A program made the translations under genes and the position numbers. A model generated the notes under the pieces. That model did no database searches, was not told where the DNA came from, and saw nothing but the letters and a program-made list of their open reading frames with translations. From Chloroflexota bacterium (GTDB lineage Bacteria; Chloroflexota; UBA11872; VXOZ01), in contig OY760183.1 of NCBI GenBank assembly GCA_963663275.1, positions 256,001 through 320,000 on the forward strand: a DNA stretch of 64,000 bases, read 5' to 3'. Positions 12,876 through 38,116 of this stretch are shown here, in pieces (positions within the stretch are counted from its first letter, which is position 1; each line of letters opens with the position of its first letter).

Positions 12876-14633
12876 CTAGAGCAGGTGCAGCAGGTCGTTC
12901 CGCACGAAGAAGTAGAAGTCCTGCGAGCCGATCGGTTGCGGCATCTTGCGACTCACCAGCCAGGACGTGAAGTTGCCGCGCGTCTGGGAATTGGTGATGA
13001 ATTCCAGCCAAAACGTCGGGCGCAAGTCCCGGTAGAGCGCCTCCGGGAACCACCAGCGCAGCTTGTAGCGGAACGGCACGTAGTTGCCCAGGTGTTCGCT
13101 GGCGTTCTCAAACTCGCTGGCGGTCACGATCACAAACGCCGCCTCGCCGGGATCGCCGATTTTCGATATGTAGGCTACCTTGGTGTAATCGCGCAGATAC
13201 CACGCGAACGGCCAGGAGTCTTCATTGTCGATGATGCCGATCACTTCCGTGCCGCCGGTGAGCATGCGGGACATCTGCTCGATTTGCGCGGCCACGTAGG
13301 GCACGTCCGGGCTGGTCTGCACGTAGACCAGCGTGTCGCGCGGCGTATCCGCGTGCGCGAACGTCAGCGGCAGCCCGGTGTGCAGCGCGTAGACGCCAAT
13401 CACGACGCAGAGGCCCAGCGCGATACGATGGCGGCGCAGGCCGTTTGGCTCCGAAAACTGCTGCCCCAGGAAGCGCGCCACCAGCAGGATGCCGGGCAAC
13501 GAGATGTGCAGCACCAGCCAGGGCATGCGCTCGCCCGCCAGCGAGTAGAGCACAACCGCCGCGACGAACCAGAAGCAGAGAAAGCGATCGGCCAGCGCGC
13601 CGCGCCGGCCCAGCCGCCACAGCGCCGGCAGCGCAAAGGCCGCCACCATCAACTCGTAGAGCGGCAGTTGCATGAAGTAGTACCAGACCGGCTGGTTGCC
13701 CCGGCTCACGTCCTGCTGCGCCAACCAGTACTCCAGCGCCTTGATGATGCCGCTGGCAAAGTCCTGGGGATGCGTGTAGAACGCGGTATAGAACGTGACG
13801 AAGATGAGCACGAACGTCACGATGCCGGCCAGGAGCAGCGAGCGTTCGTGCCAGAGGTCGGCAAGCGCGCTCCGCACCGACTCGTGGCTGGGCAGGCGGC
13901 CGCCGCGCGCGGGCATGAACATCTCCCGCAGATAGCGAAACACGATGAAGGCCACGATGATCGCCAGGGTGATGTAGGTATTCTCCTTGGAGGCCAGCGA
14001 AAGCGCCGCCGCCGCCGCGCCCAGGTAGACGTACCAGCGTTGCCTGGTGTGCAGCCAGCCAAAGAGCGCCAGCACGATGAGCATGGTCCAGGCCACCACG
14101 TAGATGTCGTTGCGCGCGAACCGGGAGAAGTAGAGCAGCGGCGGCGAAATGGCCATGAAAACGGCGGCCAGCACCATGCCGCCGCGCCCCAGATAGGGTT
14201 TCAGCGGAAAGACCAGCAGCACGGAGAGCACGCCGAACAAGGCCGGGCCAAAGCGCGCTACCGCGTCGCTGACGCCAAAGAGGAAGTACATGAAGGCGGT
14301 GAAGTAGAACTGGAACGGCCCGTGCAGCACCGGGTTGTAGCGGTAGTCGAACGAGCGGTAGATGTCCCACGCGAAGCGCGCGTGCATGCTCTCGTCGTGG
14401 TGCAGGGCGCGCGTGCCCAGGTCGTAGAACCGCGTAAAGCAGACGAACGCCATCACGCCCAGGATCACCAGCGCCTGCCAGCGGGTCAGCCCGAAGTGGG
14501 TTTCCACGCGCAGCCAGGCCGCAATCGCGGGCCAATCGGCGGCTTTCGCGTCCAGCGGAGACGACTCGTTGCGCTGCCGCTGCCTGCCCGGCTGCGGTTT
14601 CGTTCCCCGCGATGTCGCTTTCTTAGGAGGCAT
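12876..14633 (-). CDS. TIGR03663-like GT-C fold membrane glycosyltransferase (Agl23-like)
   Basis: RFYDLGTRALHHDESMHA, YRYNPVLHGP, YFSRFARND, ASKEN, LVYVQTS and WPFAWYLR motifs. Confidence 0.82.
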   Translation of the reverse strand: MPPKKATSRGTKPQPGRQRQRNESSPLDAKAADWPAIAAWLRVETHFGLTRWQALVILGVMAFVCFTRFYDLGTRALHHDESMHARFAWDIYRSFDYRYNPVLHGPFQFYFTAFMYFLFGVSDAVARFGPALFGVLSVLLVFPLKPYLGRGGMVLAAVFMAISPPLLYFSRFARNDIYVVAWTMLIVLALFGWLHTRQRWYVYLGAAAAALSLASKENTYITLAIIVAFIVFRYLREMFMPARGGRLPSHESVRSALADLWHERSLLLAGIVTFVLIFVTFYTAFYTHPQDFASGIIKALEYWLAQQDVSRGNQPVWYYFMQLPLYELMVAAFALPALWRLGRRGALADRFLCFWFVAAVVLYSLAGERMPWLVLHISLPGILLVARFLGQQFSEPNGLRRHRIALGLCVVIGVYALHTGLPLTFAHADTPRDTLVYVQTSPDVPYVAAQIEQMSRMLTGGTEVIGIIDNEDSWPFAWYLRDYTKVAYISKIGDPGEAAFVIVTASEFENASEHLGNYVPFRYKLRWWFPEALYRDLRPTFWLEFITNSQTRGNFTSWLVSRKMPQPIGSQDFYFFVRNDLLHLL

Positions 14634-17040
14634 CGGCTTTCAACACGTACACGTTGCCGCTCTGATACACCACCGGGAACCAATCCAGCAGGCGCTCCAC
14701 GTTCTCGCCGTAGAGTTGACGTTCCCAGTCACCTACAAAGATATAGTCGGCCTCGTACTTGCGCAAGAAGGCCAGGGCGCCTTCGCGCGGGGCGGCCGCG
14801 TAGAAGGCTTGCAGGTCGTTTTCGCGCTCGAACACCAGTTGGAAGTCGTCGCGCCACAGGTGCTCGTGCTGGCGCCAGCCCAGCACCGTTTGCAAGCCGG
14901 TGAAAGTGGAGACGCGGCTGTACTGGCTGTACTCCTGCCCCGAGGCCTCCACCACCACGCTATCCGATGCGGCGTTATTCTGCAACCAGGCGATGGCGGC
15001 CACCTCGTCGGCGTGGTCGCGGGCGTAGTACTTCGTGCCGTCCAGCGTCGGCGGCTCGCGTTGGAACGAGGCGAAGACGGGCGCGGTGAGCAGGCTGTAG
15101 TACAGTCCGCTCAACCCAAGCAACACCACGGCCACGCGAAAGACCCAGCTCAACGGACGCTGCCGCTCCCGCAGCCAGACGGTGGCGTAGTAGATGGCAA
15201 AGGCCACCACCGGCGCCAATAGCGTCCACACCTGGAAGTAGAGCTTGAACACGGTGTTCATGCGCATGTTCGGCGGGCCGTAGAAGTCCCGCACGTAGAA
15301 TAGCTCGCTGGCCAGGACCAGCAGCGCGGCAATGCCGACGACGACGCACACGAACGGCAGCGGCTCGCTGTACTCCCGCCGCCACAGCAGGATGCCCAGA
15401 CCGGCGATCAGGCTCAGCGCGAGGATGGCCAGCGCCGCGGAATCGATGAGCCGCGCCAGGAAGAGCGTCAACGCCACCCATCCAACCAGCGCCAGCGCGT
15501 AGGGCCGGTAGTACTCCCAGCGCGCCCCGGGTTCCGGCTGGGCAGCGGCGGCGGGGCCGCTCTGGCCGCCGTCCGCCCGCCGCCGCTGCCGGCGGGACTT
15601 GCGCCCCCGCGGCCGCGACTGCTGTTGCGGTGTGTCGGGCGCTACCCGCCGCCGCGCGGCCTGTATGCCGAGAATAACCAGAAGAACGCCCAACGGCACC
15701 AGAAAGATGCCGTACATGGTGAAGAACTGGCCGAGATTCGTGCGGAAGGGCACCAGGCCGATGCCCTGCGTGGGCGGATCGAACGTCAGGTAGAACGGCG
15801 CGAAGAACGCTAGCGCCAACGCGCCGGTGGCGGCCAGCCACGCCAGCGCGTCCTTCCACTCCCCCAGGCGACCGTGCACTTTCAGCGACACCAGCGCGCA
15901 GAGGCCCAGCAGCAGGAAGTAGGTGGGGAAGTCCCACGAGTTCAGAAAGTAGAGTCCGCCGAAGACGACGGCGCTCATCACCACCCGGCCAACGCGCGGG
16001 ATGGTGAGCAGCGCGCCGATGGCTGCCCGCGTTCGCGGGAAAGACGCGGTTATGGGCGGAAAGTCGGGATTGGCGTACCAGGTAAGCGCGGTGAATATCG
16101 CCAGCAGCGCAAAGGGCAGCGCCATGACGTGCGGGTGCAGGTCGCCCAGGATGTAGCTGAACGCCGGAAACTCGTTGATCGTATAGTCCAGCGCCGTGTC
16201 GCCCTCGATGCGGTTGACCACCCGGGTGGCGTTCCAGCCCACGCCGAACCAGAAGCCCTGGCTGAGATACTCCACCTCGGTCAACGCCTTCCAGATGGTG
16301 AAGAGGTTGCCGCTGAAGAGCAGCAGGAAGACGGCCAAGAGACCCGTGAGCGTGCCGGCGCGGGGTTTCTTGATCCCACCGCCGGCCTGGAAGCGCTTCA
16401 ACAGGCTGAAGCCGATGCCGTACGCCCCCAGGCCGCTGAGGGCGAAGAAGAGCGCCAACGCCAGATTGTAGGTGACTGCGGAGGAGATGCCCGTAAGGCG
16501 CGTGAAGAAGGCCACGATGAGGTAGCCAAAGTAGTAGTAGTTTACCGAGAGTCCCCCGGCCCAGGCGTCGTGGGGCGGCATGGACGAGGATTGCAGGATG
16601 CTGTTCACCAGCATGAGGTCCATGAACTTCTCGGTGCCCATCACCTCCGGCGCGTACTGGCGCAGCAGCGCGTAGCCGCCCAGCAGTATCAAGAAGAGGG
16701 CTTCCACCACGTAGACCTGATGCCCCAGCGGCTGCCGCAGCGTGTCCACGCGCACGCCGCAGCGCCAGACGACCAGCGCCGACAACGCGCCCAGCAGGAT
16801 GAACACCACGATGAGCGCCCACAGGGTGTTCGGCAGGATGCGCAACGACATCAGGAACCAGCCGAGGAAGCCAAACAGCAGGATGCCAAGGGTCTTGGCG
16901 AAGGGATAGCCGGCCAGCGGCATGGAACGGAAGAGCAGCCAGGTAAGCGGCAGCGTCACCAGGCTGACGGCCTGCGCCGCCAGCCACCACAGCAGGATGT
17001 ACCCGATGGTTGTCACCGTTACCGCTTCACTCTCGCCCAA
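14623..17040 (-). CDS. DUF2298 / Chlor_Arch_YYY membrane protein
   Basis: GTEKFMD, PPHDAW, NYYYFG, TINEFPAFS, GDLHPH, NSWDFP, RMNTVFKLY and LGWRQHE motifs. Confidence 0.85.
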   Translation of the reverse strand: MGESEAVTVTTIGYILLWWLAAQAVSLVTLPLTWLLFRSMPLAGYPFAKTLGILLFGFLGWFLMSLRILPNTLWALIVVFILLGALSALVVWRCGVRVDTLRQPLGHQVYVVEALFLILLGGYALLRQYAPEVMGTEKFMDLMLVNSILQSSSMPPHDAWAGGLSVNYYYFGYLIVAFFTRLTGISSAVTYNLALALFFALSGLGAYGIGFSLLKRFQAGGGIKKPRAGTLTGLLAVFLLLFSGNLFTIWKALTEVEYLSQGFWFGVGWNATRVVNRIEGDTALDYTINEFPAFSYILGDLHPHVMALPFALLAIFTALTWYANPDFPPITASFPRTRAAIGALLTIPRVGRVVMSAVVFGGLYFLNSWDFPTYFLLLGLCALVSLKVHGRLGEWKDALAWLAATGALALAFFAPFYLTFDPPTQGIGLVPFRTNLGQFFTMYGIFLVPLGVLLVILGIQAARRRVAPDTPQQQSRPRGRKSRRQRRRADGGQSGPAAAAQPEPGARWEYYRPYALALVGWVALTLFLARLIDSAALAILALSLIAGLGILLWRREYSEPLPFVCVVVGIAALLVLASELFYVRDFYGPPNMRMNTVFKLYFQVWTLLAPVVAFAIYYATVWLRERQRPLSWVFRVAVVLLGLSGLYYSLLTAPVFASFQREPPTLDGTKYYARDHADEVAAIAWLQNNAASDSVVVEASGQEYSQYSRVSTFTGLQTVLGWRQHEHLWRDDFQLVFERENDLQAFYAAAPREGALAFLRKYEADYIFVGDWERQLYGENVERLLDWFPVVYQSGNVYVLKADAS

Positions 17041-27080: not shown

Positions 27081-29558
27081 CTACGCCGGGCCTTCTTGCC
27101 GCTCGCGGCGGCGGAAAGTTTCCTCGATCTCCGCGTCGAGTTCCTGCGCCCAATTCCGCACCCGGGAGCGCAGGCGCATGTTCTGGTACGCGCCCCAGAC
27201 CGTCATCGCCGGCGGCACCACCAGCACGGACACCACCAGCGAGTAGAGGATCGTAATCGCCGCCGTGAAGGCGAACTGCTGGAACATGATCTGGGTGGAG
27301 ACCAGCAGCGCGCCGATGCCCAGGGCCGTGGTCAGCGCCGAACCCAGCAGCGCCGAGCCGGTAGTGCGCAGCGTCCGGATGGCCGCCTGCTCCGGGTCGC
27401 GCCGGCGGGCGTACTCCTCGCGGTAGCGATGGATGATGTGGATGGTGTAGTCCACCCCGATGCCGATCGAGAGCGCCGCGATGATCGACGTGATCAGCGA
27501 ATAGGGAATGCCCAGCAGCGCCATCGTGCCGATCACCGAGACGAGCGCGATGACGATCGGCGCCACCGCGATCAGCGCCAGCGCCGGTTGGCGCGCCGTC
27601 ACCCAGAAGAAGAACGCCAGCACGCTGAGGGCGGCCGCGATGATGGTTATCACCGCCTCCGTCTGCCCGTCGGTAATCGCGTCGGTAATCGTAATCGTGA
27701 TGATGCTGTCCGACGTTGCCGTAATGTCAGTGTCTTCGCCGCGCCAGCGCGTCTCTATCTCCTCCTGGATTGCCTTCGTTTGCGCGGCATTGCCGGTATA
27801 TGCCGGAAACTGGAGCAGTATTGAGTCTCTGCCATTGGGATCGTTGGAGAGAAGATACGCCAAGGTGGGGTCTTGCGCCTGGAGCCTGACGAGCGCCTCC
27901 TGCATCAGCCCGGTATCGAGTTGCACGCCGGCGGAGGCTTCCCCGAAGAGCGCGGCCAGTTCCGGGTCGTACTTGTCGCCGGGCTCCCCGCTGTCGTGGA
28001 TCCAGTCGCGCAGGAGCGATTCGTACGAGGCGATGATGGGGCTTGCCGCCGCGCTCGGGCGCAGCCCTTCATCCTCGAAGGCGGTCATGAGGTCCCGCAG
28101 GTTCAGCAGCGTGCGCGTCTCCGCGGCCTCGGCCGTTACAAGCACGTTGACCATCTCCGTGGAGCCGCCAAACGCCGCGTCCAGCGTATCCATGTCCGCC
28201 ATGGTGGGCCCGCCTCTGGGCACCACGTCGCGGAGTTGGAACTCCGAGCCGACTCCCCTGGCCGCAATCCCAAGTCCGACGACAATCACGAACACGACGA
28301 TGAGATAGGGCGCGGGCCTGCGCGTGACTCCCCGCCCCAGCATCTCCGCCAGCCGCTCGACGCCGGGCAGCGCGTGCGCCACCAAACGAGGCTGTTTCAA
28401 CGTGCCGCGCGCTTCGCGCCGCCGGTCGATGAGCGTCCGGCCGGCCGGCACCAGGGTCAACATCACGATGAGGGTCATGCCCACGCCCAAGCCGGCGATC
28501 ACGCCGAAATCGCCCACGATTTCGATGGGAGAGAACAGGCTCACCAGGAAACTGACAATCGTGGTGACGCCGGCCAGCGTCAGCGGCACGGTGACGTTGT
28601 TCAGCCCCACGCGCGCGGCCTCGGCCACCGGCTCGCCCAGGTGGCGTTGCTCGCGGTAGTGCGAGACGATCTGAATCGCGTAGTCCACCGTGAGACTCAT
28701 CATGACGACGGGCACCACCGCCGTCAGCGCGTTGGGCGGGCCGATCAGGCCCAAACCGTACGGGCCGAGCCAGCCCTCCACGCCGATGATCCAGACGAGG
28801 GCCAGGGTCAACCCTCCCAGCGTGAGCAGCAAATCGGTGAACGTGCGCATGAAGAGCAGCGTAAGCCCCGCGATGAGCAGGAGCGTCAGCCCGGACAAGG
28901 GCAGCCTCCCTTCCCGCGTGGCCTGCCGGAAGGCGTCGTCGACCACCACGGTCGAGAGGCTGCTGGCGCGCAGCGGGCCTTCGCTGGCGAGCGCGGCCTC
29001 GTAGATCCGGCGTTCGGCGTCCACCACGCGCTCGTCACCCGTTCTGCGCAGGCGGATGCTGGCAACCGCGACCGGCGTGTCGTCCGCGTCCACGCCGGTC
29101 AGCGCGGCGAGCGCCGGCTGTATCTCCGGGCGGGCGCCGGCCGCGTCGATCTGCTCCTGGGTGACCGCCTCGAAACTCTGCACGCGCAGCAGCGCCTTGA
29201 TCAGCAGCGAGGGCGCGACCACCGGGTCCACCGGCGCCAGAATTCCCCCCACCGTTGGATCGGTGACGACCTCGCCAATCAGGGCGTCCATCTGCGCCAA
29301 TCCCGCCGGAGTGAGCCCGTTGCCCCGGAAGATGAGCGTTACGACGGTGGCGTTGCCGGTTTCACCGAAGCGCTCTTCGATCTCTGCGAGCGCCATGGCG
29401 ACGGCGCTCTCCTCGGGCAGAGACGCAATTGAAGGCGGCAGCGGCGCCCGCCGCGCCGCCCCCGCGGCGAGAAAGATCGTCACGTTCAAGAGCATGAACA
29501 GCGTGAGCCACGGACGCTCGACGACCAGCCGGCTCAACTCGCCGAGAACGTTGCTCAT
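27081..29558 (-). CDS. MMPL/RND-family transporter, copy 1
   Basis: Two-repeat topology with SLTVDYAIQIVSHYRE and GIGVDYTIHIIHRYREE, plus GSALLGSALTT. ATG 29558. Confidence 0.9.
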   Translation of the reverse strand: MSNVLGELSRLVVERPWLTLFMLLNVTIFLAAGAARRAPLPPSIASLPEESAVAMALAEIEERFGETGNATVVTLIFRGNGLTPAGLAQMDALIGEVVTDPTVGGILAPVDPVVAPSLLIKALLRVQSFEAVTQEQIDAAGARPEIQPALAALTGVDADDTPVAVASIRLRRTGDERVVDAERRIYEAALASEGPLRASSLSTVVVDDAFRQATREGRLPLSGLTLLLIAGLTLLFMRTFTDLLLTLGGLTLALVWIIGVEGWLGPYGLGLIGPPNALTAVVPVVMMSLTVDYAIQIVSHYREQRHLGEPVAEAARVGLNNVTVPLTLAGVTTIVSFLVSLFSPIEIVGDFGVIAGLGVGMTLIVMLTLVPAGRTLIDRRREARGTLKQPRLVAHALPGVERLAEMLGRGVTRRPAPYLIVVFVIVVGLGIAARGVGSEFQLRDVVPRGGPTMADMDTLDAAFGGSTEMVNVLVTAEAAETRTLLNLRDLMTAFEDEGLRPSAAASPIIASYESLLRDWIHDSGEPGDKYDPELAALFGEASAGVQLDTGLMQEALVRLQAQDPTLAYLLSNDPNGRDSILLQFPAYTGNAAQTKAIQEEIETRWRGEDTDITATSDSIITITITDAITDGQTEAVITIIAAALSVLAFFFWVTARQPALALIAVAPIVIALVSVIGTMALLGIPYSLITSIIAALSIGIGVDYTIHIIHRYREEYARRRDPEQAAIRTLRTTGSALLGSALTTALGIGALLVSTQIMFQQFAFTAAITILYSLVVSVLVVPPAMTVWGAYQNMRLRSRVRNWAQELDAEIEETFRRRERQEGPA

Positions 29559-29817
29559 GTCCCCACTTCCTGTATGCGGACGCTCCCACACGCGGCGTGG
29601 GCAACCTCGCGGCCGCGGCGGGCGCGCCGCCCAGGCCCACAGTCGTCTCGAAGGTCCGTTCGTGCCGTCCTCTCACCACTTGAGCACTTAGCACTATACA
29701 CGAAAGCGAGCCGAGCGGCATACCCGACTTGACGTGTGCGCCCACAAGCTCGCCCTCCGGCCGGAGAAGCAACGGCACAACCCGGCCGCTAGGCAGAATG
29801 AACTCCCTCTCCCTGGG

Positions 29818-29896
29818 GCGCCCAGGTGCGGGCAATAGGCCTCGGCCACGCAGACGCGCCCGTTCTCATCACAGTACGCAATGATATTCTCACCCA
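29818..29896 (-). pseudogene. Short remnant of a Rieske [2Fe-2S] oxygenase gene
   Basis: Encodes GENIIAYCDENGRVCVAEAYCPHLGA, nearly identical to 32434-32508. Confidence 0.75.
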
Positions 29897-29904
29897 GTCT
29901 CAAA

Positions 29905-29968
29905 TTGACAGCGTATACCATTTTCAAGTACAATATAGTCGAATAGACCGAATAGTCGAACAGACCGA
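29905..29968 (+). promoter_or_regulatory. Sigma70-type promoter with an adjacent 17-bp direct repeat (candidate operator)
   Basis: TTGACA 29905-29910, 18-nt spacer, TACAAT 29929-29934, then atagtcgaatagaccga / atagtcgaacagaccga. Confidence 0.65.
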
Positions 29969-30193
29969 AATGAACTGCCTGTACGCCCCGGGAACGCGCG
30001 CTCAAAGGTGAGTCCGTGCTCCGTTGTCGGTTAGCCTCTCCTTTTTCCTGCCCAGTGGTCGAGTCTGCCCGTAGCGCGCCATGCTCCGGATGGTGTGCCG
30101 GCAGGTCGATCCGCGCGCGGATACTGTGGCTGGGAGGTTCTCATTCACTCTTCCACCAGTCAAGGTTATCACGAGTCCTTGGAGGAAAGACGT

Positions 30194-32227
30194 ATGTCTC
30201 TCGAAGTAGACCGGATCGCGACTCACGAGTTAACGCTGCCGCAAGAACTCGTCCTGATGCTGCTCAATGAGGAAACCGGCTACTTTCGCCAAGTGGTCGG
30301 CTGGGACTTGAACTGCGCAATTGTGGGCGCAATACTCGCTGAGCTATCGCTCCGTTCCCGCATTGACACGGACATGGAATCCCTGAAGCTTCTCGATCCG
30401 ACGGAGACCGGCAACCCGGTCTTAGATACCGTACTCGAGAAGATCGTCAATGAACCCGTTGAACATAATGCCACCTACTGGATCGAGCGGCTTGTCTTTC
30501 GCGCGCCCCAGATCATCGACCGGATTTTGGACCGCTTGGTTGAACTGAAGGTGCTTGACTACCACGACGGCGAATTCTGGACGCTGTCTCGCACTGCGTG
30601 GCAGACGGAAGTGCACAGTGACGTTGGCGAAGGCACCGCGGTTGAGTTCGTCAAGTCGCGCGTGAGCAGGGTGATCTTCAACAATGAGATTCCCGCACCC
30701 AGAGATGTCATCATGGTCTGTCTTCTCAATACGTGCGATGTCCTGCGCTTCATCTTTCACCTCGAAGAAGAGACCGAGGAGCGTGTCCGGCTGATCAGCA
30801 GGATGAACCTGATTGGCCGCTCCGTGGCCGAGGGGGTCGCCGACAACTTCGTCGGGCCGCTGCTCCAGCGGTCCGCGCTTTCCAAACCAATCCCAACAGT
30901 AAAGCTGCAAGACCTGCTGCTCAATCCACACCTGCGCACCGGCAACATTCCCGCGATCTTTGCGGAACTTCAAAAGAAGTACGGCCCAGTGTTTACCATA
31001 CGCCCGCCTCTCTCAGAGCCTCTGTATTTTCTGGCCGGGCCCCGGGTCAACCAGTGGGTGCAACGGAACGGCCGCCATTTCCTGAGAGCCAAGGACTATT
31101 TCACCGACTTCGAGAAAGTCTTCGGCGCATCCGGCTTGATACCGGCCGCGGACGGCGCCGATCACTTCCGGCTGCGCAAGGCCATGTCGCCAGGGTATTC
31201 ACGCGAGAGGCTGGAAGGGCAACTGGACGAAGTGTACCGCAATGCCCGGACGTACATGGCGGACTGGAAGGTTGGCGACTCCTACGCTGCCAATCGCCTC
31301 TGCCGGCGGATGATAAACGCGCAACTTTCGCCGTTCACGGTGAACATTGACTCGCAAGACATCGTCGACGATCTCATGGCGTACAAGGAACGCGCGCTCA
31401 GCACGCACGTCGCGCGGGTCCTGCCCAAATTCATGCTGCATACCCCCGGCATGAAACGCCGGGCGAAAGTCGTCAACGAGGTGCTGGATCGCGTCCTGAG
31501 CGAGCATACGCCCGCCCAGCGCGCCGGCAGTCCGCGGGATCATGCCGACGACCTGCTGAGCCTGCACGCAAGCGACCCGCAATTCCTGCCGGAATCTAAT
31601 ATGGGGTTTATGCTATCGGCCCCGCTGCTTGCCAGCATGTACCTGGGCGATGCGCTGAGCTTCGCGGTCTACGCCATGGCCGCGCAGCCTGAACTCTACG
31701 ATCGGATCAAAGTCGAAGCGGATGCGCTCTTTGGCAACGGCGATCCGGCGGGCGCCGACTTCACGCTGGAGGCAATCGACGTCACGCACCGCTTCCTCAT
31801 GGAATGCATGCGCATGTACCCGGTCGTGCCCGTGTCTATTCGCAACGTCATGAATGCGTGCGTGGTGGAAGGCTTCGAATTGCCGGTCGGGGCGCGGCTC
31901 CACATTGCCACGACCGCCACGCATTATTTGGACGATATCTTCCCTGATCCCTTCACGTTCGATATCGACCGCTATCAGGCGCCGCGCAATGAGCATCGCA
32001 CGCGGGCATACGCCCCGTACGGGCTGGGCACGCATACCTGCCTGGGCACCCGGTTGATGGAACGGCTACTGTCGATCAACGTGCTGCTGATCGCGCATTA
32101 CTTCACACTGGAGGTAGCGCCCGAGAAATTCAAGCGCAAGCTCCGGTTCAGCCCGCTGCCGTCGAATAAACCGAGCAAGAAGCTGAAGTTCGTCATCGCC
32201 GAGCAGAGACGCGCGTTGCTGCCCTAG
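30194..32227 (+). CDS. GPP34 (GOLPH3/Vps74)-like domain fused to cytochrome P450, copy 1
   Basis: N-terminal LTLPQELVLMLLNEETG..GAILAELSLRSRI..GNPVLD..LDRLVE. C-terminal ECMRMYP (ExxR), FPDPFTFDIDRY and YGLGTHTCLG heme motif. GGAGG RBS before ATG 30194. Confidence 0.85.
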   Translation: MSLEVDRIATHELTLPQELVLMLLNEETGYFRQVVGWDLNCAIVGAILAELSLRSRIDTDMESLKLLDPTETGNPVLDTVLEKIVNEPVEHNATYWIERLVFRAPQIIDRILDRLVELKVLDYHDGEFWTLSRTAWQTEVHSDVGEGTAVEFVKSRVSRVIFNNEIPAPRDVIMVCLLNTCDVLRFIFHLEEETEERVRLISRMNLIGRSVAEGVADNFVGPLLQRSALSKPIPTVKLQDLLLNPHLRTGNIPAIFAELQKKYGPVFTIRPPLSEPLYFLAGPRVNQWVQRNGRHFLRAKDYFTDFEKVFGASGLIPAADGADHFRLRKAMSPGYSRERLEGQLDEVYRNARTYMADWKVGDSYAANRLCRRMINAQLSPFTVNIDSQDIVDDLMAYKERALSTHVARVLPKFMLHTPGMKRRAKVVNEVLDRVLSEHTPAQRAGSPRDHADDLLSLHASDPQFLPESNMGFMLSAPLLASMYLGDALSFAVYAMAAQPELYDRIKVEADALFGNGDPAGADFTLEAIDVTHRFLMECMRMYPVVPVSIRNVMNACVVEGFELPVGARLHIATTATHYLDDIFPDPFTFDIDRYQAPRNEHRTRAYAPYGLGTHTCLGTRLMERLLSINVLLIAHYFTLEVAPEKFKRKLRFSPLPSNKPSKKLKFVIAEQRRALLP

Positions 32228-32600
32228 CGCCACTTCAGCGCCGCTCCAGCCGTCTTGGTCGAGCGAATCCGCCGGCAGACTCCACTGCGGCGCCCGCTCT
32301 TCCCGCCCCCCACCAGGCGAAGATCATCCCTGCCATTTCCTGCGTCTCGAGTACCCGCAGCCCCGTGAACCGGGGCGGCGGGGCATAGGGCGCGGCGACG
32401 CACGCGCCCGCCGGCGGCGGGCCCCAGGTCGGAGCCCAGGTGCGGGCAATAGGCCGCGGCCACGCAGACGCGCCCGTTCTCATCACAGTACGCAACGATG
32501 TTCTCACTCATCCAGGTCTGCCGGATGAGTCGCTCCCGCTCGATGGCCTCACGGCTTGCGGCGAAGTACCGGCCCGCGGACACGGGCGCAACTCCGGCAT
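32224..32600 (-). pseudogene. Frameshifted, internally deleted Rieske oxygenase pseudogene
   Basis: Fragments in shifting frames: MPELRP / GRYFAASREAIERERLIRQTWMSENIVAYCDENGRVCVAAAYCPHLGSDLGPAAGGRV / CVAAPYAPPP..LRVLETQEMAGMIFAWWG. The second CxxH ligand pair is missing. Confidence 0.8.
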
Positions 32601-32667
32601 GTTCTCAGGCTGCCGCCGCTGAGTTGACATTGTTCGGTACATCCACAATGTCGAGAGAAAGAAACAC

Positions 32668-32696
32668 TTTACATGTTGAGGAATATCGGCGATAAT
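32668..32696 (+). promoter_or_regulatory. Putative sigma70 promoter for P450 copy 2
   Basis: TTTACA, 17-nt spacer, GATAAT in an AT-rich patch. A second TTGACA lies at 32624. Confidence 0.45.
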
Positions 32697-32909
32697 AGTA
32701 CCAGAGGGTTTGTAGTGTATTCCAGACTGCTTCTCTCTTCTACTGAGAGTGCGGTTCCTGTGCGCCTCAGCAGGTGTGCGACCACTAACATCCCGCGGCC
32801 TTTCTGGATTACCCTACTCCGTTTGCCTTCCCCTACTAGCGAGACTTTGGAGAGAAGTGGGCGCCAATGCAAGGCCCGGGCGCGTAACGACTCACGGAGA
32901 CAAGAGTCT

Positions 32910-34943
32910 ATGAGCCTCATAGAAGCAAGCAAAGCGGTTCACACGCTCAGTATGCATGAAGAATTCGTCCTGATGCTCCTCAATGAGGAGACCGGGTACT
33001 TTCACCAGGTGCCCGGCTGGGATCTGAACTGCGCCGTCATCGGCTCCGTACTCGGCGAACTCTCGCTCATGTCCCGTATTGACACAGATATGGATTCCTT
33101 GAAGGTTCTGGACCAGACGGCAACCGGCGACCCCATCATGGATTCCACTTTGGAGAAGATCGCAACCGAACCCGGGCAACACGACGCGCAGTACTGGATC
33201 GAACGGCTCATCTTTCGCGCGGGGTCGATCATCGAGGAAACATTGGGGCACTTGGTCGAGCGGAAGGCCCTGGACTACCACGACGGCGAATTCTGGACGC
33301 TGGCGCGCACGGCTTGGGAGACGGGATTGCTCACCGAATCCGGCGAAACGACCGTGGCTGAGTTCGTCAAGACGCGCGTTGGCAGGGCTATTTTCAATAA
33401 CGAGATTCCCAGCCCACGCGATGTCGTCATCATCTGCCTTCTCGATACGTGCGATGTCTTGCGCTTCATATACCAACTGGATGAACAGGCGGAAAGACGT
33501 ATCGAGACCATCTGCAAGATGGATTTGATCGGCCGGTCCGTCGCGGATGCGGTCTCCCAGAACCTCGCCGTCCCTTTGCTGCAACGTTCCGCGTTTACAA
33601 AAGAGATTCCGGCGGTGCGTTTGCGTGACCTGCTGTTCAGTCCGCATCTGCGCAGCGGCAACATTCCGGCGGTCTTTGCGGAACTTGCGGAGAAATATGG
33701 GCCGGTATTCGAGTTGCGCCCGCCGTTTTCCGAGCCCATGCTCTTCTTGGCCGGGCCCCGGACAAATCAATGGGTGCAGCGGAACGGGCGCCTCCACCTG
33801 AGAGCCCGGGACTACTTTACCGATTTCGAGAAGGTCTATGGCGCATCCGGCCTGATACCGGCCGTGGACGGCGCTGAACACTTCCGCATGCGCAAGGCCA
33901 TGTCCACCGGATACTCCCGCGAGACGATGGAACAGCAACTGGATGAGATCTATCGTAATGCGCGCGCATTCATGGCGGACTGGAAGGTTGGGGACTCCTA
34001 TACCGCGAAGTCCATGTGCCGGCACTTGATCAACGCGCAAGTTTCGCCGCTTACCGTCAGCATTGAATCGCAAGACGTCATCGACGATCTGATGGCGTAC
34101 AAGGAACGCGGGCTGAACACCCACGTCGCGCGGGTCCTGCCCAAATTCATGCTGCATACCCCCGGCATGAAACGCCGGGCGAAAGCCATCGATACGATAG
34201 TTGAACGAATCGAGAACGTCCATACGCCCGCCCAGCGCGCCGGCCGCACGCGGGACCTTGCGGATGACTTGCTGAGCCTGCACGCCAGCGACCCGCAGTT
34301 CATGCCGGAATCGAATCTGCGGTTCATCTTGTCGGCGCCGCTGCTTGCCAGCATGTACCTCGGCGACGCGCTCAGTTTCGCGGTCTACGCCATGGCCGCG
34401 CAGCCGGAAATCTACGAGAGGCTCCAGGGTGAAGCCGATGCCATCTTCGGCAATGGCGACCCCAAGGCCGAGGACTTTACGCTTGAAGCGCTGGACGTCA
34501 CGCACCGCTTCCTCATGGAGTGCATGCGCATGTACCCGGTTGTGCCTGTGTCTATTCGCAACGTCATGAACGCATGTGTGGTGGAGGGCTTCGAACTGCC
34601 GGTGGGTAAGCGCATCCACATTGCGACGACGGCTTCCCACTACATGAAGAAGGTCTTCCCTGAACCCTTCACCTTCGACATCGACCGGTACAAGGAGCCG
34701 CGCTTCGAGCATCGCAGCCCGGGCTACGCCCCGTACGGGCTGGGCACGCACACGTGTCTGGGCACGCGCTTGATGGAGCGGCTACTCGCGATCAACGTGC
34801 TCATGATTGCGCATTACTTCACGCTCGAGGTAACTCCCGAGAAATTCAAGCGCGCGCTCCGGTTCAGTCCGTTACCGTCGATGAAACCGACCACGAAGCT
34901 GAAGTTCGTCATCGCCGAGCAACGGCATACGCTACCCGCCTGA
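32910..34943 (+). CDS. GPP34-like domain fused to cytochrome P450, copy 2
   Basis: Collinear paralog of 30194-32227 with the same length (677 aa) and the same ExxR and YGLGTHTCLG motifs. GGAG RBS before ATG 32910. Confidence 0.85.
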   Translation: MSLIEASKAVHTLSMHEEFVLMLLNEETGYFHQVPGWDLNCAVIGSVLGELSLMSRIDTDMDSLKVLDQTATGDPIMDSTLEKIATEPGQHDAQYWIERLIFRAGSIIEETLGHLVERKALDYHDGEFWTLARTAWETGLLTESGETTVAEFVKTRVGRAIFNNEIPSPRDVVIICLLDTCDVLRFIYQLDEQAERRIETICKMDLIGRSVADAVSQNLAVPLLQRSAFTKEIPAVRLRDLLFSPHLRSGNIPAVFAELAEKYGPVFELRPPFSEPMLFLAGPRTNQWVQRNGRLHLRARDYFTDFEKVYGASGLIPAVDGAEHFRMRKAMSTGYSRETMEQQLDEIYRNARAFMADWKVGDSYTAKSMCRHLINAQVSPLTVSIESQDVIDDLMAYKERGLNTHVARVLPKFMLHTPGMKRRAKAIDTIVERIENVHTPAQRAGRTRDLADDLLSLHASDPQFMPESNLRFILSAPLLASMYLGDALSFAVYAMAAQPEIYERLQGEADAIFGNGDPKAEDFTLEALDVTHRFLMECMRMYPVVPVSIRNVMNACVVEGFELPVGKRIHIATTASHYMKKVFPEPFTFDIDRYKEPRFEHRSPGYAPYGLGTHTCLGTRLMERLLAINVLMIAHYFTLEVTPEKFKRALRFSPLPSMKPTTKLKFVIAEQRHTLPA

Positions 34944-35121
34944 CGCGCCGGCGCTTCCGCAATTCCGCCGCCCCGCCGGTGAGGGCGCTGCTCCCACTTT
35001 CCACCGCCAAGACAGCCGCAACGCCAATTGGGGCAAGCGGCGGGAACGCCAACACCACGCAGCGAACCGGCCGGCCCCCTCATTGGCCGGCCGTCTTCCG
35101 CTCTGACACTTTCGCCGACCC

Positions 35122-37587
35122 CTATTCCTCCGTGTAGCGCCGCTGCACGGCCTCGATTTCCAGGTCGAGTTCGTCCGCCCATTCCTTCACCTTCGAGCGC
35201 AGCCGCACGTTCTGGTACGCGCCCCAGACCGTCATCGCGGGTGGGACCAGCAGGATGGATACGATCAGCGAGTAGAGAATCGTGATCGACGCCGTGATAG
35301 CGAACTGCTGGGACGCCAGCAGCGGCGAGAACACCAACACGCCCAGCCCGAGCGCCGTCGTCAGCGCGGAACCCAAGAGCGCCGACCCGGTGGTGGCGAG
35401 CGTCCGCACCGCCGCCTGCTCCGGATCGCGCCGGCGGGCGTACTCCTCACGATACCGGTGAATCACGTGGATGGTGTAGTCTACCCCGATACCTACCGAG
35501 AGCGCCGTGATGATCGACGTGACGAGCGAGTAGGGAATGCCCAGCAGCGCCATGGTGCCCAACACCGAGATGAGCACGAGCACAATCGGCCCCACCGCGA
35601 TGACCGCCAGCGCCGGCTGGCGCGCCGTCACCCAGAAGAAGACCGCCAGCACGGTCAGCGCCATGGCGATGGTGGTGCTGATCGCCTCCGTCTGCCGCTC
35701 GGTGATCGAGTCCGTGACCGTGATCGAGATGATCGTCTCTGACGCCGCGGTAATAGCGTCGTCATCGCCGAACCAAAGGGCTTCGATGTCCTCCTGGAGG
35801 GTCTTGGTTGCCCCGGGATCGCCCGCATAGGCCGGGAACTGGAACAGGATGGCGTCGATACCGTTCGGATCGTTGACCAGAATGTGGGCCAGAGTGGGGT
35901 CCTTCGCCTGGATTCTATCGAGCAATTCCTGCATGAGCTGCGGATCAAGCTGCACTCCCGCTGAGGCTTCCCGGAAAAGCGCGGCGAGTTCCGGGTCGTA
36001 TTTATCGCCGGGCTGTCCGCTGTCGGTGGTCCAGTCGCGTATGAGCGACTCGTACGTTGCCTGTATCGGCCCCGCCGCCGCGTTCGGCCGGCGCGCCTCG
36101 TCCGCGAAGGCTTCCGTGAGCGCGCGCAGGTTCAGCAGCGTGCTGGTCTCCGCGGCCTCGGCCCGCACGAGTACCGTGACCATCTCCGTTGAGCCGCCGA
36201 TGGCCGCGTCGATGGTGTCCATGTCCGTCAGCAGGCTACCGCCTCTGGGCAGGATATCGCGAATCTTGAATTCCGACGTGAGCCCCGTGGCGGCGAATCC
36301 AAGCCCAATCGTCACCGCGAGCACCACCGCGAGATAGGGCGCGGGCCTGCGGCTAATGCTCCTACCCAATAACCCCGCCAACCCTTCGATGCCGGGCAGG
36401 GCGGCCGAAATGGGGCGCGGCGGTTTCAACGTGCCGCGCGCTTCGCGCCGCCGGTCGATGATTACGCGGCCGGCCGGCACCAACGTGAGCATCACGATGA
36501 GGGTCAGGCCCACCCCCAGCCCCGCAACAACGCCGAAGTCGCCAACTATGCCAATCGGTGAGAACAGATTCACCAACAGGCTCACAATCGTCGTGACGGC
36601 GGCCAGCACCAGCGGGATGGTGACGTTGCGCAGTCCCGCGCGGGCGGCCTCCACCACCGCCTGGCCCTCGTGCCGCTGCTCGCGGTAGTGCGAGACGATC
36701 TGAATGGCGTAGTCCACGGTGAGGCTGATTACGATGATCGGCACCATTGCCGTGAGTTGGTTTGGCGGGCCGGTGATGCCCAGCGCCTGCGGGCCGAGCC
36801 AGCCCTCCACGCCAATAATCCACACCAGCGAAATGACCAGCCCGCCAAGCGTGAGCAGCAGATCCGCAATCGTCCGCATGAAGAGCAGGATCAGCCCGGC
36901 GATCAACAGCAGCGCCAGCCCGATCAGCGGCCCCATGCCCTCCTCCGTGGCTCTCAGGTACTCATCCTCGATCACCACGGGCGAGAGGCTGCTCACCCGC
37001 AGCGGGCCTTCTTCTTCGCTCACGCGTTCATAGATCGTGCGTTCGGCGTTCCCGATCCGCTCGTCGCCCGTATCGCGCAGCCGGATGACGGCGACTGCAA
37101 CCTGCGTGCCGTCCTCATCGGTACCGGTCAGCGCCTCGAGCGCCTGTTCTATCTCCGGCGGCCCTCTGACGGAGTCTATTTGGTCCTGCGTGAGCGACGC
37201 GGCGCTTTCTACCTGGAGCACGGCCTTGATCAACAACACCGGCGCGATGATGGGATCGACCGGCGCCAGGAGCGCTCCCACCGCCGGATCGCTGACGATC
37301 TCATCGATGAGGGCGTCCATCTGCGCCAGGCCCGCGGGCGTGAGCGCATTGCCGCGGAAGAGAAGCGTGACGACGTTGGCATCGCCGGATTCACCAAAAA
37401 GCTCATCGATCTCAACGATCACGGCGGCGACGGCACTTCCTGGGGGAAGGATCGCCTCGGTATCCAACGGCTGCGCGCGCCGCACCGCACCGGCGGACAG
37501 GAATATCGTAATGTTGATGATCACGAAGATCGTGAGCCAGGGGCGGGTCGTGACCAACCGGCTGAGCCTACCGAGTAAATTGTCCAT
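35122..37587 (-). CDS. MMPL/RND-family transporter, copy 2
   Basis: Paralog of 27081-29558 with the same VDYAIQ and GVDYTIH motifs. GAGAGGAG RBS before ATG 37587. Candidate TATAAT at 37758-37763 (minus strand). Confidence 0.9.
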   Translation of the reverse strand: MDNLLGRLSRLVTTRPWLTIFVIINITIFLSAGAVRRAQPLDTEAILPPGSAVAAVIVEIDELFGESGDANVVTLLFRGNALTPAGLAQMDALIDEIVSDPAVGALLAPVDPIIAPVLLIKAVLQVESAASLTQDQIDSVRGPPEIEQALEALTGTDEDGTQVAVAVIRLRDTGDERIGNAERTIYERVSEEEGPLRVSSLSPVVIEDEYLRATEEGMGPLIGLALLLIAGLILLFMRTIADLLLTLGGLVISLVWIIGVEGWLGPQALGITGPPNQLTAMVPIIVISLTVDYAIQIVSHYREQRHEGQAVVEAARAGLRNVTIPLVLAAVTTIVSLLVNLFSPIGIVGDFGVVAGLGVGLTLIVMLTLVPAGRVIIDRRREARGTLKPPRPISAALPGIEGLAGLLGRSISRRPAPYLAVVLAVTIGLGFAATGLTSEFKIRDILPRGGSLLTDMDTIDAAIGGSTEMVTVLVRAEAAETSTLLNLRALTEAFADEARRPNAAAGPIQATYESLIRDWTTDSGQPGDKYDPELAALFREASAGVQLDPQLMQELLDRIQAKDPTLAHILVNDPNGIDAILFQFPAYAGDPGATKTLQEDIEALWFGDDDAITAASETIISITVTDSITERQTEAISTTIAMALTVLAVFFWVTARQPALAVIAVGPIVLVLISVLGTMALLGIPYSLVTSIITALSVGIGVDYTIHVIHRYREEYARRRDPEQAAVRTLATTGSALLGSALTTALGLGVLVFSPLLASQQFAITASITILYSLIVSILLVPPAMTVWGAYQNVRLRSKVKEWADELDLEIEAVQRRYTEE

Positions 37588-38116
37588 TGCTCTCCTCTCG
37601 AACCTGAGAAAGCCCCGATGCGCGACGGGAACCGCCTCGCGCATCCGGCCGCATGAGCGGCCGCTGCCGCGCGGCAGGCGCTATGCCGCGCTGCCTTGAA
37701 GCCTCGCGGCGGTCTGGCCGTAACCTGCCGGTATCCTGCGTTGCGGCGTGTGCGCCCATTATAGCGTACTGTCGCCAGGCAGCCACACTGGGGGTATGGA
37801 GAGCCTCGCAAACCGCTCGCGCTGCGATAGGCTCAGCGCGAACGACGGCTGCTCGCTCCCGTCATGCTACGCGCGGGCAAGGCCGCGTGTGAACGGCGGC
37901 TTTCCCAAAGATGGTACCGCCACCCCCACACGGCTGAGCCTGCCTTATCTTCAGAAGGGCAAGTGCGGCTTGCGGCCTGGGTCCGGTTTACTGCCTGAGA
38001 CGAGGGAGTCCGGCGGACAGCCCGCGCGCGTGGACGCAAATACAGTAGTAGGATACGCAAAGAACGTGTCATCCCACGGTCTCATGGAGCGGGAGCATGA
38101 CGGCCGGGGTGTGGCA

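Follow-up and report, generated by a model that had tools for sequence, protein, structure and literature searches.

Proteins in which a GPP34 domain precedes a cytochrome P450 (P450) have been published as the GPP34_L family, described in the main text of Ferreira et al. (Microbiome 2025, PMC11706023) as 656 proteins which are monophyletic, exclusive to sponge symbionts, expressed in Aplysina aerophoba metatranscriptomes and proposed to be secreted effectors that bind phosphatidylinositol 4-phosphate (PI4P). This main text makes no mention of sterols, MMPL proteins or methyltransferases, and one supplementary file contains neither sterol nor MMPL, RND (resistance-nodulation-division) or efflux; the PDF flanking-gene figure was outside this scope. 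ERG6-type sterol methyltransferases (SMTs) of sponge symbionts, some of them active in vitro, were the subject of a separate study (Brown et al., Nat Commun 2023, PMC10070321), whose main text raises the idea that symbionts methylate sterols acquired from their host. P450, Rieske proteins and transporters do not appear in that main text, three of its supplements contain no P450, Rieske, GPP34, MMPL, RND or Golgi, and a 2025 preprint of the same group has no P450, Rieske, GPP34, transporter, gene cluster or symbiont. In the literature searched we came across no publication that connects GPP34_L with sterols. Here we analyse a stretch of 64,000 nucleotides from a Chloroflexota bacterium (assembly GCA_963663275.1, contig OY760183.1, positions 256,001 to 320,000; in the following called the window), in which two GPP34-P450 fusion genes lie between two genes for MMPL transporters (Table 1). 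With moderate confidence we regard this region as a duplicated copy, lineage-specific and in part decayed, of a module which has spread horizontally among sponge (and coral) symbionts, and whose substrate is likely a host sterol.

The fusion family is large: of 8000 candidate proteins 2331 score E <= 0.001, and the top 120 of these 2331 all have the two domains. Taking one genome per species, we surveyed 79 fusion loci, all from records of metagenome-assembled genomes (MAGs) and with identities of 58-81%. They carry the labels Chloroflexota, Dehalococcoidia, Latescibacterota, Gemmatimonadota (including Palauibacter), Nitrospira, Acidimicrobiales, Aldehydirespirator, Alphaproteobacteria, Gammaproteobacteria (including Poriferihabitaceae), Binatia and Rhodothermales. 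Neighbours were counted by tblastn (at least 30% identity, at least 50% of the query, E <= 1e-15, flanks of at most 10 kb) and the neighbour clusters were named by Pfam; counts based on open reading frames (ORFs) were too low (Rieske 57/79, SMT 41/79), because spurious ORFs masked genes, for example in locus L007. A KshA-like Rieske oxygenase (Rieske plus KshA_C domain) is present at 64 of the 79 loci and an RND-type transporter of any kind likewise at 64, an SMT (Methyltransf_11 plus Sterol_MT_C) at 49 and a flavin adenine dinucleotide (FAD) amine-oxidase-like protein at 34. The 15 loci without an RND protein include ten truncated ones and five with full flanks (L023, L030, L061, L072, L073). 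An MMPL of the window's type, found at 26/79 loci, is always convergent with the fusion and directly downstream of it, and is 60-81% identical across phylum labels; a second MMPL type occurs at 9/79. In the phyla labelled as diderm the pump is an AcrB-type RND protein (29/79 loci) with a membrane-fusion protein (26/79) and an outer-membrane factor (18/79), and export is therefore implied for these loci. The ERG6-type SMT at 49 loci indicates a sterol rather than a generic lipid as substrate.

The full module thus appears to consist of a GPP34-P450 fusion and an RND lipid transporter, usually together with a KshA-like Rieske oxygenase, an ERG6-type SMT and a FAD oxidase. An earlier note on this DNA, made from the letters alone, had proposed a dedicated lipid/sterol module, to be supported by a recurrent linkage of GPP34-P450, MMPL and Rieske genes and to be given up if fusion homologues rarely lay near MMPL or Rieske genes. 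With Rieske and RND partners at 64 of the 79 loci each, the linkage is recurrent and far from rare, and together with the SMT it supports the module as such; the window itself has to be described differently, namely as a derived duplicate and not as the full module.

On the fusion tree (79 sequences; quick IQ-TREE, LG+G4; locus L016 was left out because of an internal stop) the phylum label changes 15 times, compared to a minimum of 8 and a mean of 44 for shuffled labels, a pattern that would fit spread by transfer followed by vertical descent. Several loci have independently duplicated the fusion (L053:10001-14154, L058:10001-14084, L061:10001-12996, L012:1562-3544 and L012:10001-12028): tandem pairs occur in Aldehydirespirator records, with the second copy of L058 split over two frames, and in a Latescibacteria record two copies flank the efflux pump. 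A conserved protein of about 260 amino acids (aa) without Pfam or NCBIfam match is encoded between the SMT and Rieske genes in 11 loci (L006:16988-17773 and ten others), and two unnamed proteins (~446 and ~301 aa; L006:3284-4624, L006:5149-6054) accompany the second MMPL type in seven loci.

The window lies in a closed contig of 3,531,182 bases, and the genome is 99.57% complete. At ~2.075-2.083 Mb this genome harbours a complete module in the canonical order, with the FAD and fusion genes forward and the Rieske and MMPL genes, which follow each of them in turn, reverse. It includes a third fusion, 61-63% identical to fusions 1 and 2, a third MMPL and an intact Rieske oxygenase (355 aa; G000:2080818-2081870). 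In total the genome retains three fusion-MMPL pairs, two in the window, both next to decayed Rieske sequence, and one in this complete module. Since both pairs in the window have lost their Rieske partner, fusion and pump are the core that is kept by selection. In related species the canonical pair is flanked by Rieske and FAD genes whose counterparts here (80-93% identical) adjoin the third fusion, which shows that the locus was reshuffled. Locus L007, which has the window's flanks, shows the order FAD (forward), intact Rieske (reverse), fusion (forward), MMPL (forward), MMPL (reverse).

Fusions 1 and 2 share 73% aa and 78.6% DNA identity, MMPL-A and MMPL-B 70% aa identity. Fusion 1 (81% identical to L001/L002) and MMPL-B (78-81% identical at the aa level to the MMPLs of L001-L005 and L010) correspond as orthologues to the one canonical pair that related species have (78-81%), and MMPL-A is 76% identical to the second MMPL of L007. 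All three fusions of the genome belong to one well-supported Chloroflexota clade, in which fusion 2 branches outside the clade formed by fusion 1 and its orthologues, and the third copy is basal. All three are old, retained paralogues. An attempt to date the duplications by synonymous divergence (dS) was dropped, as all values lie between 0.5 and 1.0, near saturation. Within the genus, the gain and loss of fusion lineages is rapid. At E <= 1e-50 four of the 12 congeners (G003, G004, G005, G007) show no full-length fusion; they have only a truncated piece of the third-type fusion, in open frames of 241-335 aa whose identity over the P450 C-terminus is 81-83%.

Concerning the source of the substrate, no squalene/oxidosqualene cyclase domain (PF13243, PF13249) was found in the closed genome, with control genomes responding, so that the oxidosqualene cyclase which defines a de novo bacterial sterol cluster is lacking. 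None of the 12 other species of the genus has a cyclase either, and 11 of them have the fusion. Among eight more distant relatives three match a cyclase (two full-length, one weak partial), and all three are without the fusion. The genome does encode a lone SMT at 2,548,787-2,549,818 (L101:9752-10828; Sterol_MT_C 2e-15, 57 bits with a cut-off of 21.7; Methyltransf_11 5e-14). By its combination of a methyltransferase domain with Sterol_MT_C it is assigned to the ERG6 type, and we take its motifs to be ERG6-like. An ERG6-type methyltransferase without a cyclase argues for a substrate from outside, and the suggestion of the earlier note that the substrate is possibly host-derived gains support from the lack of a cyclase in the closed genome and in 12/12 congeners. 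Four runs labelled 'sponge metagenome' contain 28-40% of the window's sampled words; their contigs are all at least 90% alike to the window, a third to just under half of them at least 95%, and titles of relatives' records also point to a sponge habitat. None of the runs listed is an RNA run. A sponge host would therefore be the obvious sterol source. The lone SMT gene is flanked on both sides by genes for GFO/IDH/MocA oxidoreductases (L101:8384-9439 and L101:10972-12360; ~2.547-2.551 Mb), and in 9/79 loci the module, too, is bracketed by members of this Pfam family (cluster c8); such enzymes may act as sterol dehydrogenases in this pathway.

Several points weigh against a host sterol as the substrate of the window genes. 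The window copy has no SMT, no working Rieske gene and no FAD oxidase gene in cis, and these partners act from elsewhere in the genome, if at all. Ten fusion-bearing genomes of other labelled phyla were inspected for cyclases: seven have no match and one a weak partial match (34 bits), but two have a full cyclase, and in these an endogenous substrate is therefore possible. Most record titles name no host. The two MMPLs score below the curated NCBIfam cut-offs of the hopanoid transporter HpnN (95 and 93 for MMPL-A and -B; cut-off 752) and the sterol transporter BstA (33; cut-off 1400). RND relatives such as NPC1 carry sterol inward, and export is therefore uncertain in single-membrane cells. 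The FAD oxidase is nearest to LkcE and also near the 'putative aminooxidase' 2b9w. Finally, the nearest solved P450s, CYP184A1 and P450 BM3, are not sterol-specific, and CYP51 is no closer.

In the P450 domain the haem-thiolate loop (P608..C616..G618) and the ExxR motif (E537, R540) are invariant in 53/53 aligned fusions. The best solved matches of this domain are CYP184A1 (5e-24; structure with oleic acid), taxadiene hydroxylase, CYP51 (5e-17) and P450 BM3, with identities of only 16-22%, and the substrate is therefore not fixed by them; P450 families are drawn at ~40% identity. When the ESM Atlas was searched with the P450 domain and clusters with GPP34 were set aside, nothing but generic P450 clusters of bacteria came back. 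In the I-helix the fusions read A-S-[V/M]-Y-L-G, compared to A-G-H-E-T-T in CYP184A1 and A-G-H-H-T-S in CYP51. Tyr483 (53/53 fusions) and Leu484 (50/53) occupy the position of the usual acid-alcohol pair ([A/G]-G-x-[D/E]-T-[T/S]); in the alignment to CYP184A1 a gap precedes the Tyr (A-S-M-(gap)-Y-L). As this pair for O2 activation is absent, a non-standard chemistry is possible.

These P450 matches leave some room for a module that tailors and exports a non-sterol lipid of the sponge holobiont, such as unusual long-chain fatty acids, a terpenoid or something polyketide-like. Both CYP184A1, solved with oleic acid, and P450 BM3 are fatty-acid enzymes, LkcE and 2b9w as nearest relatives of the FAD oxidase would suit such a lipid, the SMT also matches models of cyclopropane-fatty-acid synthases, and pumps of the MMPL/HAE3 kind transport many lipids. 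Nevertheless we consider this explanation rather unlikely, given the Sterol_MT_C score far above its cut-off and the ERG6-like motifs of the SMT, given that the Rieske partner carries the steroid-hydroxylase domain KshA_C and finds its best solved matches in KshA (3e-24), and given how distant the fatty-acid P450s are.

The GPP34 domain was compared with GOLPH3, whose PI4P pocket is formed by W81, R90, R171 and R174 according to Wood et al. (2009, PMC2806290). We combined 30 fusion GPP34 domains into a profile, which aligns to human GOLPH3 (structures 3kn1 and 9qpq) at 1e-5 to 2e-5 over ~195 positions. In this profile alignment of modest score the equivalent of W81 is a tryptophan in 53/53 fusions, whereas the equivalents of R90 (V/I/A/M/L/T), R171 (E/P/D/G/S) and R174 (I/V/F/N) are basic in none of the 53. 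Compared with GOLPH3/Vps74, the fusions thus have the GPP34 fold but not the PI4P pocket. The AlphaFold2 model (pLDDT 71.8, pTM 0.60) predicts GPP34 as a helical domain in which residues 121-131 form a beta-hairpin, with the P450 fold after it, and as read from the sequence the protein begins directly with GPP34 and has no N-terminal hydrophobic leader. In the main text of the GPP34_L paper (PMC11706023) rare fusions of GPP34 to a Rieske protein and to an ABC-ATPase are also described. All three partners (P450, Rieske, ABC-ATPase) act at the cytoplasmic face of the membrane, which fits a GPP34 domain that tethers a protein to the membrane or presents a lipid to it, and we infer such a role here. 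A short stand-alone GPP34 gene, 35% identical to the fusion GPP34, is found elsewhere in the genome (G000:C1:1669512-1670120).

According to the published hypothesis the fusion is secreted as an effector, attaches to PI4P of the host through GPP34 and so blocks the maturation of phagosomes; the neighbouring genes would then be incidental. Apart from the homology to GPP34, this hypothesis draws on the main-text description of a family known only from sponge symbionts and expressed in A. aerophoba metatranscriptomes (PMC11706023). We think it improbable, since of the pocket residues only W81 is retained, a leader is missing, the fusion partner is a haem enzyme that has kept its Cys ligand, and the neighbours are conserved across phyla.

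No better placed, and to our judgement a shade less probable still, is a role in the degradation or detoxification of sterols or steroids as a carbon source, in which KshA-type ring opening would be combined with a pump that expels toxic intermediates. KshA acts in bacterial steroid catabolism and the Rieske partner is KshA-like, but this partner is dispensable here, having decayed twice in the window. Moreover, the methyltransferase, called the commonest companion (49/79 loci), is of a biosynthetic type, and no other catabolic genes recur in the annotated clusters, KstD and Hsa genes not having been searched for in the genome. Least probable of all is that the window locus has lost its function and is decaying as a duplicate, which would leave the complete module at ~2.08 Mb as the only one that works, because despite the two Rieske pseudogene pieces and the truncated fragments in four of 12 congeners the four large genes are all open, their catalytic motifs are invariant, the ratio of non-synonymous to synonymous substitutions (0.23 for fusion 1 versus fusion 2, 0.33 for MMPL-A versus MMPL-B) is similar to that of orthologue comparisons (0.14-0.29), and fusion 1 and MMPL-B correspond to the only canonical pair of related species.

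We therefore return to the host sterol and to a module that probably edits and moves it. The analysis shows the domain architecture, intact genes under purifying selection, the recurring linkage and the lack of a cyclase; substrate, transport direction and the role of GPP34 are what we infer. In such a scheme a host-derived sterol would enter the bacterial membrane by partitioning. The GPP34 domain would hold the cytoplasmic P450 at the membrane or feed it the lipid, and the P450 would oxidise the sterol. The Rieske, FAD and methyltransferase enzymes might then modify it further in trans, and the adjacent MMPL would move the product outward. Going further, we put forward as a tentative idea, on balance doubtful as a whole, that sponge symbionts without a cyclase use GPP34-P450/RND modules to acquire sterols from the host, to oxidise and methylate these and to return them, with GPP34 as a membrane or lipid-presenting adaptor that no longer binds PI4P, a P450 which by its Tyr-Leu pair carries out a non-standard reaction, and three fusion-pump pairs serving different sterols. 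If true, part of the 'sponge-specific' sterols, including side-chain-alkylated animal biomarkers, would be made by bacterial editing. In any case the GPP34-P450 'symbiosis factor' and the bacterial SMTs, which had been discussed apart from each other, are neighbours in one mobile module with a lipid pump, and the fusion changes from a presumed host-cell effector to a probable sterol enzyme. This offers a concrete and testable way in which bacteria might alter the sterols of their host, and it bears on the interpretation of the sterane biomarkers attributed to early sponges. What the window contributes to this picture is a closed genome that lacks a cyclase, three fusion-pump pairs that have diverged, and Rieske partners that have decayed twice.

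Table 1. Features of the GPP34-P450/MMPL region, in positions of the window.
Feature	Position	Strand	Description
MMPL-A	27081..29591	-	836 aa, RND transporter near HAE3 type, sterol-sensing-like membrane domain, intact
Rieske remnant 1	29817..29897	-	KshA-like oxygenase fragment, aa 50-76, first Cys-x-His of cluster included
Sigma-70-like promoter match upstream of fusion 1	29905..29934	+	TTGACA-18-TACAAT, 11/12 consensus matches; putative
Fusion 1	30194..32227	+	677 aa; GPP34 ~aa 15-213, P450 ~aa 247-652
Rieske remnant 2	32231..32598	-	N-terminal Rieske domain, two frameshifts, catalytic domain deleted
Fusion 2	32910..34943	+	677 aa, GPP34 + P450 paralogue of fusion 1
MMPL-B	35122..37644	-	840 aa, RND transporter convergent with fusion 2

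The gene order in Table 1, obtained from six-frame ORFs and Pfam, is exactly the one the earlier note had read: MMPL, Rieske fragment, GPP34-P450, Rieske pseudogene, GPP34-P450, MMPL, with only the two fusions on the forward strand. The scans it had asked for matched GPP34, p450, MMPL and Rieske in the window (GPP34 4e-28 and p450 2e-32 for fusion 1, 5e-28 and 4e-35 for fusion 2; MMPL 4e-44 and Sterol-sensing 1.6e-15 for MMPL-A, MMPL 1.7e-43 for MMPL-B). Its description of both fusions and both MMPLs as intact, diverged paralogues agrees with the open frames and the identities given above, and so does the remark that the P450 region is less GC-rich than its flanks, as the two fusions have a GC content of 0.595 and 0.592, against 0.673 and 0.650 in the two MMPLs and 0.654 over the window as a whole. 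Of the extent it had given, 27081..37587, the start is right and the end falls ~57 bases short of the ORF start of MMPL-B. Before refinement of the starts the fusion ORFs extended over 30095-32227 and 32673-34943; the starts given are conserved ATGs (MSL...), and homologues are likewise 675-677 aa long. The true start of MMPL-A is likely the ATG (MSNV...) near 29558. Contigs of run X1, possibly the source sample, span 28403-29872, 31778-32440 and 34348-35238 with 0 mismatches, and the junctions they cross are therefore not artefacts of this assembly. Among the 37 ORFs profiled, no relation to the module is apparent for the flanking genes, which include ThiI, a PolB-like exonuclease and an epimerase. 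On the reverse strand at 12876-17040 a PMT_2 glycosyltransferase-like protein (585 aa) adjoins a DUF2298 protein (805 aa, 3e-109), seemingly also unrelated.

The Rieske remnants were mapped by tblastn with the genome's own intact 355-aa KshA-like oxygenase as query. Remnant 2 consists of three pieces in three frames, aa 21-94 (32598-32380), aa 104-137 (32408-32307) and aa 137-162 (32308-32231). Nothing of the C-terminal catalytic domain is left in this remnant, which runs to within 4 bases of the fusion 1 stop codon and includes an ORF of 119 aa with a Pfam Rieske match of 5e-4. Remnant 1 is 89% identical to the intact copy over its 27 aa. Neither has the Rieske and non-haem-iron domains in one open frame that make a full KshA-type oxygenase, and a reading of these ORFs as intact small ferredoxins was rejected, as they are frameshifted, truncated pieces of the 355-aa enzyme. 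An 80-base piece common to both (29817-29896 and 32431-32510) has 93.75% DNA identity, higher than the 78.6% of the neighbouring fusion genes; gene conversion could explain this, as could a slower decay where the gene is most conserved or regulatory reuse. The sigma-70-like match begins 9 bases past the fragment of remnant 1.

Among described systems, the MMPLs resemble HpnN (hopanoids), BstA (sterols, Methylococcus) and MmpL3 in the MMPL/RND fold with a sterol-sensing-like membrane domain, both matching sterol-sensing and Patched SSD models, and in being encoded beside enzymes that make or modify a lipid. Equivalence to HpnN or BstA is ruled out by the curated cut-offs. MMPL-A and -B score 37 and 50 for MmpL3 (cut-off 1400), and 205 and 187 for HAE3 (cut-off 352), the nearest model; they form a separate RND subfamily. 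With CYP51 the P450 domain shares the 'microsomal-like' class, a full-length alignment and, for the predicted model compared by Foldseek to the lanosterol-bound structure 7snm, a TM-score of 0.53 (query-normalised) or 0.78 (target-normalised). It is not a CYP51 orthologue, judging from 19-20% identity and a different I-helix, and while in the CYP51-ferredoxin fusion of Methylococcus capsulatus the partner is a redox protein, here it is GPP34. The module's Rieske partner is like KshA in its combination of Rieske and KshA_C domains. It is not equivalent to SdmA (37 bits with a curated cut-off of 600), and unlike in both of these systems the Rieske gene of the window is reduced to two broken fragments. 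The clusters of Brown et al. are defined by homologues of sterol synthesis (oxidosqualene cyclase, sdmA/B, erg genes), whereas the genome studied here has no cyclase.

The closest relative remains GPP34_L itself. Of the earlier note's statement that no characterised pathway has this architecture, the part on the pathway stands, as we found no match; the fusion family had already been published (PMC11706023). Both window fusions are members: they have an N-terminal GPP34 (PF05719) and a P450 domain (PF00067) within 620-700 aa, fall into a single Chloroflexota clade with 58-81% identity to the 79 MAG loci, and come from the same kind of source, parts of the window being present in sponge-metagenome runs. 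The difference to the published view of this family lies in its role, since the conserved neighbours and the lost basic residues of the pocket point to lipid chemistry at the bacterial membrane.

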